DNA from: a virus
Lineage: Duplodnaviria; Heunggongvirae; Uroviricota; Caudoviricetes
DNA: 51,595 nucleotides
Reading direction: 5' to 3' (one strand)
Virus record (IMG/VR): IMGVR_UViG_2711768017_000018
Shown: positions 46,801 to 49,800 of the stretch, piece by piece
Layout: each line of letters opens with the position of its first letter
Numbering within the stretch: position 1 is the stretch's first letter
Program-made: the position numbers

Positions 46801-49800
46801 CCCTGCCCTGTACCCTGTGGCGAAATGACTTATATCTTGCGGGTGATTGGTGATTCAATGATTGATGAGTACCGCCCGGGAGACATGATTTTTGTTGATC
46901 CTGAAGTCCCTGCCTGCCACGGTGACGACGTTATTGCATTGATGCACGATACAGGCGAAACCACCTTCAAGCGGTTGATAGAAGATGGAACACAGCGTTA
47001 TCTCAAAGCATTAAACCCAAACTGGCCTGAGCCTTACATTAAGATTAACGGTAATTGCTCTATAATTGGTACAGTGATTTTCTCAGGAAAACCAAGAAGA
47101 TACATAATAAAGGCCTAATCAATATTTATAACCTGCTTCGGCAGGTTTTTTTATACTTGACAATGTACCTTTGGGATACATAATGTATCTAAAAGAAACA
47201 CAGCACAGGCAAGATTAAACAAAATTTGGTTGTAACACGGCGTATGGCACATGCGTCGTTAGCGGTCTGGGGACGTTAAAGGGGACAATCCACTCCTTGC
47301 TCGGGCAAACAAACCAGGTAGCCGGAATGTGCAAGTCAATGATGATGCTGATAAGACGCCTAACCAGCGTGGCGATTCGGTTTGACGCCTGGGAAGAGAC
47401 CAGGGTGCAACGATGAGGACATTTATGGAACCGCGACAAAGTGTGGTGCCGTAACTGGCTAAGTGCTCTCAGCGTTGTGGTGAATGCGCAGGCTGATGCG
47501 CGAAAGACATTGCAGCTAATGCGGAAAAGAGCTGTTCGGCGGGGCAATTAAACGCCCGTGAGAGTCTGAAATAACCGCAAGCCGGAGATCAGCACCGGTC
47601 ACCACAACAGCCACTGCTTTGGCGGTACCAGTTTGTACACTTGCTTCCGGCTGGTACCGCTCTTTTTACAAAACAGAGAAGAGCATCACCGGACGACGGG
47701 CTCATAACCAAATCCATCCGGGCGGCTGCCACCGCAGGTGTTCTTCTCTGTTTTGTGGAGAAACCAACCGACCTTGCAGGGTCGATATGATTAGGAGCAG
47801 CAAAATGGCTAGCGAACGCAGTACTGATGTGCAGGCATTTATTGGGGAGCTGGACGGCGGCGTATTTGAAACCAAAATCGGCGCAGTTCTCAGTGAAGTC
47901 GCTTCCGGTGTGATGAACACGAAAACCAAAGGTAAGGTCTCACTCAACCTGGAAATCGAACCATTTGATGAGAACCGTGTGAAAATCAAACACAAACTCT
48001 CATATGTTCGCCCGACTAACCGCGGGAAAATTTCCGAAGAAGACACCACCGAAACGCCGATGTATGTCAATCGCGGTGGTCGCCTGACTATTCTGCAGGA
48101 AGACCAGGGACAATTACTGACTCTTGCCGGTGAACCTGACGGAAAACTCCGCGCAGCAGGTCATTAATATCGTTCTTAATTAACCGATTATTTATCTCAT
48201 CACTGAATATCTTTATATAGTGAGGACTTATTATGTCTCAGAACTTAGACGCAACCGCAATTAATCAAATCCATGCCCTTATTTCTGCTCAGGGTGTTAA
48301 TGAAATTATCAGTAAGATTGGTGCCGATGCTGTGGCATTGCCTGAGAATTTCCGCATTCATGATCTGGAAAAATTAAATTTAAATCGTTTCCGTTTCCGT
48401 GGTGCGCTTTCCACTGCCAGCATCGATGACTTTACTCGTTATTCTAAAGATCTTGCAGATGAAGGCACCCGCTGCTTTATCGATGCTGATAATATGCGTG
48501 CCGTCAGTGTTCTTAACCTGGGTACTATTGATGAACCAGGTCACGCAGATAACACCGCCACTCTCAAACTGAAAAAGACAGCTCCGTTCTCTGCTCTGTT
48601 GTCTGTTAATGGCGAGCGTAACTCCCAGAAGTCACTGGCAGAATGGATTGAAGACTGGGCCGACTACCTTGTGGGCTTTGATGCTAATGGTGACGCCATT
48701 CAGGCAACCAAAGCGGCTGCGGCGATCCGTAAAATCACAATTGAAGCGAACCAGACCGCTGATTTTGAAGATAATGACTTCAGCGGCAAACGCTCCCTGA
48801 TGGAGTCTGTCGAAGCGAAGACCAAAGACATTATGCCAGTGGCATTTGAATTTAAATGCGTTCCGTTTGAAGGTCTGAAAGAACGTCCGTTTAAATTACG
48901 CCTCAGCATTATCACTGGCGATCGTCCTGTACTGGTTCTGCGCATTATTCAGCTGGAAGCGGTACAGGAAGAAATGGCTAACGAATTTCGTGATCTGCTT
49001 GTTGAGAAATTCAAAGACAGCAAAGTAGAAACCTTTATTGGTACTTTCACCGCCTGATTTCATTACTGCAAATGCCCCTGCGGGGGCATTTACGGAAGCG
49101 ATAATTTTAACTATTGCCGCCCCTATAAAGAACCATTAAACAATAACGTGACGTAGCTATTGATAGTAAATGAAGCACTTGCAAAATAATTGCATTGCGT
49201 ATATATACACACATGTGTTGTATTACAGCGATAATGGTAAAGCAAATGATTAACTCTGAAGCAATTGAGCAACTAATGTGGCTATGGTCCTTATTTGACA
49301 TTAAATTCTTATCTATTCTTGCCGCTGCCTTCACTATATATTTTGGCGTGCAAAAAATATCAAAAAAGGTGACAGTGTCGTATTCAGCAAATGCAAGTAG
49401 AATATATGACATGCATATATCAACCATAATCCTGAATAATAAAAGAGATAATGCAATTGCTATATCTTCAATCAATATGGAGGTTGAAGGTAAAGGGATA
49501 CTACAAGTTATTAAATTTGACTCCCCTCTTCTTTTAAAGAACTATGATTCTTTAAAAGTTGAACCACCAAAATTTAGCAGCCTTTACAATAATGATGGCG
49601 TAGTTAAGTTAGATATTTCTGATAAGTTTCATTTTTATATAATCACGACATCTGGAGATGAAATTAAATGTATTTCTGAAAATAAATATGTAGCACCAAA
49701 CATGGAAAACAAAATAGCTACAGACATAAGAAAATTTAATGGCATTGTCTTAACAAACAGAATGTCTTATATTTTTTTCTATGCAAATGACAACGGAGAG

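Follow-up and report, generated by a model that had tools for sequence, protein, structure and literature searches.

A modular non-coding RNA leader with a tRNA-shaped element downstream of the pL-like promoter of an N-less lambdoid prophage

What does a lambdoid phage transcribe from its early-left promoter when no N gene follows it? The question is raised by IMG/VR record IMGVR_UViG_2711768017_000018, a 51,595-nucleotide (nt) stretch of Caudoviricetes DNA that is called the window here. It is a lambdoid prophage with an immunity region of the SfV / cdtI / Ayreon type, in which 620 nt (47185-47804) separate the pL-like promoter from the first protein gene. N-less lambdoid phages are common (SfV, ST64B, mEp460, cdtI, Stx2c phages and LLS), and their leaders have been treated as blank or assumed to be put-like. 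A sequence-only reading of the window had described an untranslated, hairpin-rich leader without an N gene, and had suggested either antitermination of the HK022 put type or a prophage small RNA (sRNA). Its description of an untranslated, structured and N-less leader is upheld by the open reading frame (ORF), folding and conservation data given below. It is well supported that the leader is a non-coding, modular and conserved RNA containing a transfer RNA (tRNA)-shaped family, and that it is neither spacer nor a put site.

From the promoter onward, the leader comprises module A, module T, module B, a terminator-like hairpin with a U-run, and module C (Table 1). In BLAST comparisons with phage records, 178 records match parts of the leader, different records matching different segments, and the phages concerned are of unrelated types (lambdoid, P1-like, epsilon15-like, T1-like and Vi1-like). 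From 47218 onward the leader is common to phages with other immunity regions (99% identical in mEp460). Positions 47224-47480 match P1-like phages and epsilon15-like podoviruses, 47461-47609 match a P1 variant, with a 40-nt core matching T1-like, Vi1-like and many Klebsiella, Salmonella and Erwinia phages, and 47619-47830 match ST64B, Kati and others. The folding z-score of the whole leader is -3.2. A search of 46000-49000 against Rfam 15 returned nothing but noise, even at E<=10, and no covariance model matched the leader, whether of C4 antisense RNA, IsrK, DicF, GOLLD, ROOL, YrlA or any other family. Gathering-threshold scans of eight loci with A, T or B returned true tRNAs only, and ARAGORN predicted no tRNA genes in the window. 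The hairpins singled out in the sequence-only reading are real, but they form the 3′ end of a larger cassette, of which modules A, T and B (47224-47608) had been missed.

Table 1. Features of the leader and its flanks in the window (bp, base pairs; HMM, hidden Markov model; dG, folding free energy).
Feature	Position	Strand	Description	Evidence
cI repressor gene	46444-47118	+		Peptidase_S24 (Pfam)
Intrinsic terminator of cI	47130..47153	+	7-bp stem, then T-run	Annotated terminator in phages Ayreon and SfV
pL-like sigma-70 promoter	47157..47184	+	TTGACA-16-CATAAT	11/12 consensus match; annotated promoter in Ayreon
Module A	47224..47409	+	Structured non-coding RNA	HMM, compensatory changes
Module T	47410..47475	+	Long imperfect closing stem ACGAUGAGGACAUUUA / UAAGUGCUCUCAGCGU	Covariation between phages
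Module B	47474..47608	+	tRNA-shaped four-way junction	Covariation, RNAfold centroid
Terminator-like hairpin	47621..47667	+	13-bp stem, loop ~15-19 nt, then UCUUUUU	RNAfold dG -21.2 kcal/mol, z -3.85
Module C	47666..47758	+	~22-bp near-perfect stem, 47666-47687 / 47737-47758	dG -46.4, z -7.2
Small hairpin, Shine-Dalgarno and yfdP-like start codon	47768..47807	+	Hairpin 47769-47785, AGGAG 47793-47797, start codon 47805	

Coding potential in the leader is slight. In the ORF listing no + strand ORF of 47185-47804 reaches 60 amino acids (aa), and the longest (39, 26, 36 and 49 aa) each begin with TTG or GTG and match nothing in Pfam. The 39-aa ORF, annotated as a “hypothetical protein” in Ayreon, and a 110-aa antisense ORF (47215-47547) are both disrupted by stops or frameshifts in homologues that are conserved at the nucleotide level. 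The claim that no N gene or convincing ORF lies between pL and 47805 therefore stands, and the small N-like ORF that had been named as its refuter was looked for by ORF listing, Pfam and frame conservation and was not found. “Hypothetical proteins” lie over modules A, T and B in Ayreon (L001; 3178-3297 and 3399-3593) and SfV (L002; orf33); they are probably mis-annotations, since the frames are not conserved.

Module B carries most of the argument. In the window, helix P1 (GUUGUGGUG/CACCACAAC) is followed by the linker AAU, P2 (GCGCA-GGCUGA-UGCGC), one G, a 77-nt variable domain (P3), the linker CAA and P4 (GCCGG-AGAUCAGCA-CCGGU), with no linker back to P1. Across the family, P1 is modally 7-9 bp (up to 23 bp) and free in sequence. 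P2 has 5 bp and the loop GGCUGA, followed by 1 nt; P3 is variable, 20-150 nt long and followed by ~3 nt; and P4 has 5 bp, the loop AGAUCAGCA and 0 nt before P1. Among the loci examined 166 distinct copies were found, 134 of which have AAU as the first linker, and the window copy shows every family-defining feature. Searching viral contigs for the pattern of one or the other conserved half of B gave at least 120 loci each time. At least six consecutive pairs in a fixed P1 register are present in 62 of 67 distinct elements, retrieved by a search that required only the 5′ motif and P4. In an alignment of 101 distinct sequences, from which P3 was excised, compensatory changes occur at 14 of 17 stem pairs (P1 7/7, P2 5/5, P4 2/5), in 222 cells compared with 48 in shuffles. 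The covariation score is 0.326, compared with 0.087 in shuffles (0/500 reach it) and 0.02-0.08 in slid registers. The G-U pairs in B indicate that the transcribed strand is +, and the RNAfold centroid of the window copy reproduces P1, P2 and P4. The covariation analysis across homologous leaders that the sequence-only reading had proposed bears out RNA structure; six pairs in module A and the stem of module T also covary.

The topology of B is that of a cloverleaf. A canonical tRNA has a 7-bp acceptor stem, a 2-nt linker, the D arm, a 1-nt linker, the central arm, a variable linker, and a 5-bp T arm with no return linker; B has linkers of 3, 1, ~3 and 0 nt, a 5-bp P4 and, as the modal length used in this comparison, a 7-bp P1. 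P1 and P4 form a stack of 7 + 5 bp. The P2 and P4 loops, both invariant, are complementary (GCUGA/UCAGC) and could pair as a Watson-Crick “elbow” where tRNA has its D/T-loop contact, but because the loops are invariant this kissing interaction is only a proposal. Identification of B as a real tRNA or transfer-messenger RNA was rejected, since ARAGORN and the Rfam tRNA model are negative, while Rfam finds every neighbouring true tRNA. When P3 was considered as an antisense guide, no cis target was found in the window beyond one 10-mer (47518-47527 with 48349-48358), which was rejected as being at chance level (~0.3 expected). This 10-mer would pair the apical loop of the P3a hairpin (AAUGCGGAAA) with a site within the yfdQ-like gene, and the commoner allele of the loop (AUUGCGG) loses one of the pairs.

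Module T lies directly 5′ of B. Its stem surrounds a 34-nt insert with a hairpin and, with its 3′ strand, directly adjoins helix P1 of B. A canonical T-arm (GGUUCGAnUCC) is carried by the insert in many relatives; the Rfam tRNA model is silent on module T. The closing stem measures 11-21 bp across phages, ends 0-7 nt before B, and covaries (GAGAGCATTG/CAGTGCTCTC, GGGGATTGC/GCAGTCCCC, GAGAACACTGG/CCAGTGTTCTC and others). Just 5′ of B in the window, the strand AAGUGCUCUCAGCG pairs with the upstream ACGAUGAGGACAUU, and elsewhere both strands change together (GGAAAGAGCAUU/AAGUGCUCUUUCC, GGUAAGGGUA/UACCCUUACC, GGGGAUUGC/GCAGUCCCC, GAGAACACUGG/CCAGUGUUCUC). The sequence AGUGCUCUUUCC, found 5′ of many B copies, has the look of an rrn or lambda boxA; it was rejected as such because it is the 3′ strand of the covarying T stem, and for the same reason UGCUCU (47464-47469) in the window is not a free boxA.

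The position of B is equivalent to that of a tRNA gene. In the epsilon15-type phage TP9, module T stops 2 nt before tRNA-Arg, and the unit reads A, T, tRNA-Arg and GGCGGUGAUGG...CUAUCACCGCC + CUUUUUACAG; in the window it reads A, T, B and GGCGGUACCAG...CUGGUACCGC + UCUUUUUACAA. B and its hairpin in the window thus correspond in place to the tRNA-Arg(UCU) and GGCGG...CCGCC + CUUUUU hairpin of epsilon15-type phages, and the T|B and T|tRNA joints share GUUGUGG (GTTGTGG in DNA). In the P1 variant OP279344 (L129, 1278-2320), the ban operon leader contains tRNA-Asn, tRNA-Thr and then four T-B units, in which two B copies are canonical and two are divergent, without the GGCUGA and AGAUCAGCA loops. 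The layouts in TP9 and OP279344 indicate that B is placed in genomes as a tRNA gene would be, and that A-T plays the part of a leader to genes of this kind. The OP279344 record annotates a “hypothetical protein” (1674-1847) over the T-B array, and in classical P1 the stretch that holds this array is occupied by plp and upl.

A tRNA lies within 100 nt of 20 of the 151 viral copies of B, and where any tRNA lies within 2.5 kb the nearest is on the same strand in 30 of 32. Recognisable neighbours are co-oriented with B. A cI-like repressor lies upstream in 23 loci; elsewhere B is found between Q-like antiterminators (phrog_127, phrog_753) and lysis genes (lysozyme in 13, Rz in 10) or a holin gene. 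At loci L199 and L219 an N-like gene (phrog_271) is directly 3′ of B, which ends ~25 nt before its ribosome-binding site. L199 (IMG/VR UViG 2778261..., HK022-like; 7519-9290) keeps a putR (81 bits) between cro and cII, and on its pL side a boxA-like sequence with a hairpin, B (~8857-8999) and the N-like gene replace putL and nun of HK022. At L134 the order is Q, a tR′-type terminator, T, B, a large-loop hairpin with a U-run, and holin. No conserved protein partner of B emerged from neighbour clustering of 151 viral and 69 genomic loci, which returned only generic phage genes (cI, Q, N, lysis genes and terminase). These heavily transcribed, co-oriented operon leaders are places that tRNA genes and other cargo occupy as well. 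Further conserved non-coding blocks lie 3′ of B and before the holin gene at L134 (1441-1720), L215, L217 and L154, with ...CCUCUACCUUGGGACC...CCCGCCUUGAGCGGGUUUUUU as an example from T-B late-operon leaders; they are putative additional, unannotated RNA modules of the same cassettes.

The B family is widespread. Of 5426 complete E. coli genomes, 858 (~16%) contain the subtype of the window, which is never annotated there and occupies 732 chromosomal and 237 plasmid places; among the matches listed, the plasmid records are ~92-114 kb in size. In nearly all of the 858 genomes it is 95-100% identical. A 19-mer of the B core occurs in more than 120 bacterial species, as a lower bound, with hosts in Enterobacterales, Pseudomonas, Xanthomonas, Stenotrophomonas, Burkholderia, Rhizobium, Methylobacterium and Geobacteraceae, and also in a few Bacteroidota and Actinomycetota assemblies. 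The invariant 19-mer, the compensatory changes and the identity among E. coli genomes together point to purifying selection on RNA structure. Literature string searches with B motifs gave no match, although a catalogue of 10,006 viral candidate structured RNAs may contain the motifs anonymously (PMC10690425). The B family is new in that it has no annotation, no Rfam family and no literature found by such motif searches.

Module A was detected by HMM in 124 viral loci and once in the window. Lambdoid pL leaders, none of them near a tRNA, account for 70 of these loci; 26 are of the P1 type, in which the module starts 1 nt 3′ of tRNA-Ile2 and precedes ban, and 28 are of the epsilon15 type, in which tRNA-Arg(UCU) lies 55 nt past the end of the HMM match, beyond T. 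Long runs of its 5′ core are invariant across the three types, and variation is concentrated in hairpins, with compensatory changes at six pairs in two of them. A T-arm-like hairpin (ACGC-CUAACCA-GCGU, 47365-47379) and a 3′ hairpin (CCUGG-GAAGAGA-CCAGG, 47388-47404) can be recognised, and one variable stem is CCG/CGG, GCGG/CCGC or UCA/UGA according to lineage. In the 5′ core, a local hairpin and a long-range pairing are indistinguishable, since both strands are invariant. A terminal closing stem, GUUGUA/UGCAAC, was rejected because, by eye, the P1 and epsilon15 types do not preserve it. Module A has no conserved reading frame and no Rfam match, and a literature string search with its motifs gave no relevant match.

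The terminator-like hairpin has the arms given in the sequence-only reading (gcggtaccag, 47622-47631; ctggtaccgc, 47651-47660; then tcttttt, 47661-47667), which RNAfold extends to 13 bp. With a GC-rich stem and a U-run it is a predicted intrinsic terminator with an atypically large loop; a simple terminator scan misses it because the loop exceeds 8 nt. Similar elements follow the tRNA-Arg of TP9 (GGCGGUGAUGG...CUAUCACCGCC + CUUUUU) and the B copy of L134 (a large-loop hairpin with a U-run). The hairpin is probably the 3′ end of the RNA cassette, and may be a barrier to read-through.

Module C adjoins the first ribosome-binding site on its upstream side. None of 200 shuffles was as stable. The 14-bp stem previously noted here is real, but it is longer (~22 bp), and its coordinates were off by one base (corrected, 47669-47683 / 47741-47755). 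The stem encloses a conserved loop (ACGGGCUCAUAACCAAAUCC) together with two small hairpins. In E. coli lambdoid phages, terminator and module C form one conserved block, with C in 46 variants, and in distant copies (L135, L154, L044) compensatory changes preserve both the long stem and the inner hairpin. Different genes come next in L067, L081, L044 and L135, which marks C as a separate module. Its inner loop (ACGGGCUCAUAACCCAAUCC, 47680-47740) is kept at L154 and L135 though the surrounding stems change. It is also present in an unrelated late leader (L154) and so may represent one more independent RNA motif.

The leader mosaic, the covariation of B, its tRNA-equivalent position, the operon-leader contexts, the absence of coding potential, and the stable terminator and module C lead us to favour, with slightly less than even confidence, an RNA-gene cassette from which a processed, stable, tRNA-shaped B would act in trans via its invariant elbow. 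Derepressed pL would yield a transcript of A, then T (tRNA-minihelix-like in relatives), then B. Host tRNA-processing enzymes could excise B, with RNase P cutting at the T|B junction and RNase E and 3′ exonucleases also taking part. The hairpin and U-run would stop or stabilise most transcripts, and a stable ~135-nt RNA would accumulate and act through the kissing P2/P4 loops. Polymerases that read through would reach module C, a candidate RNase III-type double-stranded RNA hairpin whose cleavage would give the yfdP/yfdQ messenger RNA its own 5′ end. The “prophage sRNA” option of the sequence-only reading comes close to this proposed picture.

Several points weigh against the cassette. The main weakness is that an efficient terminator would leave int/xis and other downstream genes dependent on read-through, for which the cassette supplies no mechanism, and the role of module A is unexplained by it. 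B has no canonical D and T loops, no anticodon loop and no conserved 3′ CCA, and as it is also rejected by ARAGORN and Rfam, its recognition by RNase P is not assured. The P2/P4 kissing has no covariation support, and one of the two loops was always fixed by the search patterns. Pairing was a requirement of the element finder, which inflates the share of paired cells in the B alignment (99.4%, compared with 87% in shuffles). A tRNA beside B is rare in species-level genomes (5/69).

The need for read-through is where RNA-based processive antitermination, put-like in action, would have its advantage, though on balance we consider it unlikely. Module A, perhaps with T-B, would modify polymerase or exclude Rho, and polymerase would pass the untranslated 600 nt and 47621-47667 to reach yfdP ... 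xis/int. There is no N-like gene, and a promoter scan showed no further promoter in 47185-48300, hence none between the terminator and the first gene. Module A begins ~30 nt past the predicted pL start, its long invariant stretches in P1, epsilon15-like and lambdoid phages would fit contact with a conserved host machine, and in TP9 it heads a unit in which two terminator-like hairpins part the tRNA from a co-oriented ORF. For the N-less phage LLS, which has the same yfdP/Q/R operon, a put-like mechanism has been speculated on (PMC12315714).

A put site itself is absent. A put covariance model, derived from five variants each of putL and putR and run unfiltered, scores HK022 putL at 96 bits, HK022 putR at 82 and the L199 putR at 81. 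Its best hit in the window is noise (8.1 bits, E 4.7, at 21712), with none in 47185-47804, and an nhmmer search of the window gave no match at E<=1. By eye, the 5′ hairpin of module A shares CGGCG...CAUGCGUCG..AGCG with putL stem I (CGGCG...CAUGCGUCG-UU-AGCG compared with ...CGUCG-GG-AGCG); membership of the put family was rejected, as neither the put model nor the HMM found anything. In put, residues A9, U28 and G35 at the two-stem bifurcation are essential, and every tested G35 substitution inactivates it (PMC9378689, a cryo-EM study with which our HK022 putL numbering agrees); module A has UU in place of G35-G36. HK022 has put just past pL and ~270 nt past the pR start, and the factor-independent read-through that it confers depends on the beta′ zinc-binding domain. 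In the window there are single copies, one A and one B, and cro and the cII-like gene, which run leftwards, are separated by ~31 nt (46121-46153), which leaves no space for a putR or nutR counterpart in the pR operon. The usual site of nutR/tR1 or putR is missing from this gap, and early-right antitermination sites may be lacking altogether in phages of this type. Nor is the leader a lambda N/nut system, since no N-like gene lies beside pL, the boxA-like UGCUCU is paired in the T stem, and boxB is absent. In other phages B is found 3′ of nutL-type sites and N-like genes, 3′ of Q/tR′ and in a putR-keeping phage; coexisting with these systems and lying beyond their loading sites, it is not a replacement for them. 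In P1, module A stands at the end of the operon leader, directly 5′ of ban, with no terminator beyond it, and the cassette keeps its terminal terminator even where a plain tRNA replaces B. Antitermination of the HK022 put type, as the sequence-only reading had it, is not supported.

It is also conceivable, if doubtful, that B and the T stem are a new functional RNA class carried as cargo in phages of many phyla, either a tRNA mimic or a new aptamer or ribozyme, and jointly that module A is a second, independent new RNA heading tRNA and tRNA-like transcription units. If true, the tRNA-mimic elbow could titrate or redirect a conserved tRNA-binding host factor (a defence nuclease, RNase P or a modification enzyme), and the variable P3 arm could diversify in arrays under an arms race.

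As a cis-acting sensor, B would be aptamer-like, and a ligand or protein state would set termination at the hairpin and U-run or translation of the next gene. The variable, covarying P1, the conserved junction nucleotides (AAU, G, CAA) and the conserved kissing loops would suit such a role, as would the co-orientation with identified downstream genes and the spacing before the N-like genes at L199 and L219. Exact hairpin-plus-T-run sites within 130 nt are commoner downstream of B (20/151) than upstream (8) or on the opposite strand (2). Yet the downstream genes are functionally unrelated, B occurs in tandem arrays and beside tRNAs, and at L134 it lies beyond tR′, where Q-modified polymerase ignores terminators. 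A riboswitch-type expression platform was rejected, as inspection by eye of the window, L141 and L218 showed no alternative pairing of P1 or P4 with the downstream terminators. We regard the sensor as improbable.

Slightly less probable again is selfish or decaying cargo, in which degenerate tRNA genes or mobile RNA cassettes would recombine into permissive leaders without use to the phage. The mosaic distribution, module boundaries that coincide with recombination joints (the shared GTTGTGG) and the lack of a conserved protein neighbour are consistent with it. An invariant 19-mer across several phyla, pairing maintained by compensatory changes and the near-identity of the subtype in E. coli all argue against it, as marks of purifying selection. 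That a small N-like protein is translated after all is scarcely credible: although four short + strand ORFs exist and one is annotated in Ayreon, all start with TTG or GTG and Pfam is silent, P1-type and epsilon15-type homologues have lost the 39-aa frame despite conserved nucleotides and variation that compensates base pairs, and phrog_271 genes, recognisable at L199 and L219, are absent from the window leader in the ORF listing and Pfam search.

Around the leader, pL overlaps an operator-like repeat, with an expected transcription start near 47191. The first protein gene after pL is yfdP-like, matches phrog_204 (function unknown) and has an alternative in-frame ATG at 47787; the following gene is DUF2303/yfdQ-like. 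On the minus strand, 47120-47193 shows a sub-threshold Rfam likeness to the Salmonella sRNAs STnc370 and STnc50 (22-25 bits; gathering 54-55), which is probably meaningless and driven by the bidirectional cI terminator hairpin. Further along, the AT-rich stretch 49100-50030 contains a 277-aa ORF (49195-50028), and the segment 50607-51595 has two minus-strand ORFs (50607-51026 and 51023 to the window end) with a 4-nt overlap. These three ORFs look like accessory cargo of the distal pL operon.

The B family reaches from ~16% of complete E. coli genomes and P1-like plasmids to prophages of Enterobacterales, Pseudomonas, Xanthomonas, Burkholderia and Rhizobium. The cassette bears on the role of tRNA-like cargo in phages, on how terminators are passed in N-less pL operons, and on tRNA mimics directed at host systems; it also corrects the annotation of spurious “hypothetical proteins” over these RNAs in Ayreon, SfV and others.

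Among known systems, HK022 putL/putR resembles the leader in being a structured RNA in the early leader of an N-less lambdoid phage with terminators beyond it. It differs in being ~70 nt long, with two stems and paired pL/pR copies, whereas the ~190-nt module A and the ~135-nt module B are multi-helix and single. The lambda nutL/N leader shares the map position between pL and the first early-left gene, and differs by its N gene and boxB, neither of which is present here. The lambda N leader also has an RNase III-sensitive hairpin just before the first ribosome-binding site, to which module C can be likened by analogy only. Leader-derived prophage sRNAs (DicF, lambda 6S/StxS, IsrK, Pas) are likewise small RNAs from prophage operon leaders. 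They differ in that the leader has no Rfam match and the L134 copy of B lies downstream, not upstream, of tR′; the Pas sRNAs are restricted to Escherichia/Shigella and appear unrelated on text evidence, their paper being without B motif strings. GOLLD and ROOL are phage-borne structured RNAs often found beside tRNA genes; the leader modules, by contrast, are 60-200 nt long, mutually independent and without Rfam match. The purine riboswitch shares with the proposed fold of B a variable P1 and a junction held by kissing hairpin loops, a resemblance that is architectural only. Phage tRNA-like stable RNAs include the C4 RNA of P1/P7 and the CI RNA of P4, which are cut from leader transcripts by RNase P, and the stable RNAs C and D in the tRNA cluster of T4. 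B differs from tRNA and C4 in its proposed Watson-Crick loop-loop elbow, its central arm of 20-150 nt, and its lack of an Rfam match, anticodon loop and CCA. It has in common with them repressor-controlled or late leaders, tRNA neighbours and an acceptor-like terminal stem, and its cassette is otherwise identical to one that has tRNA-Arg in its place.

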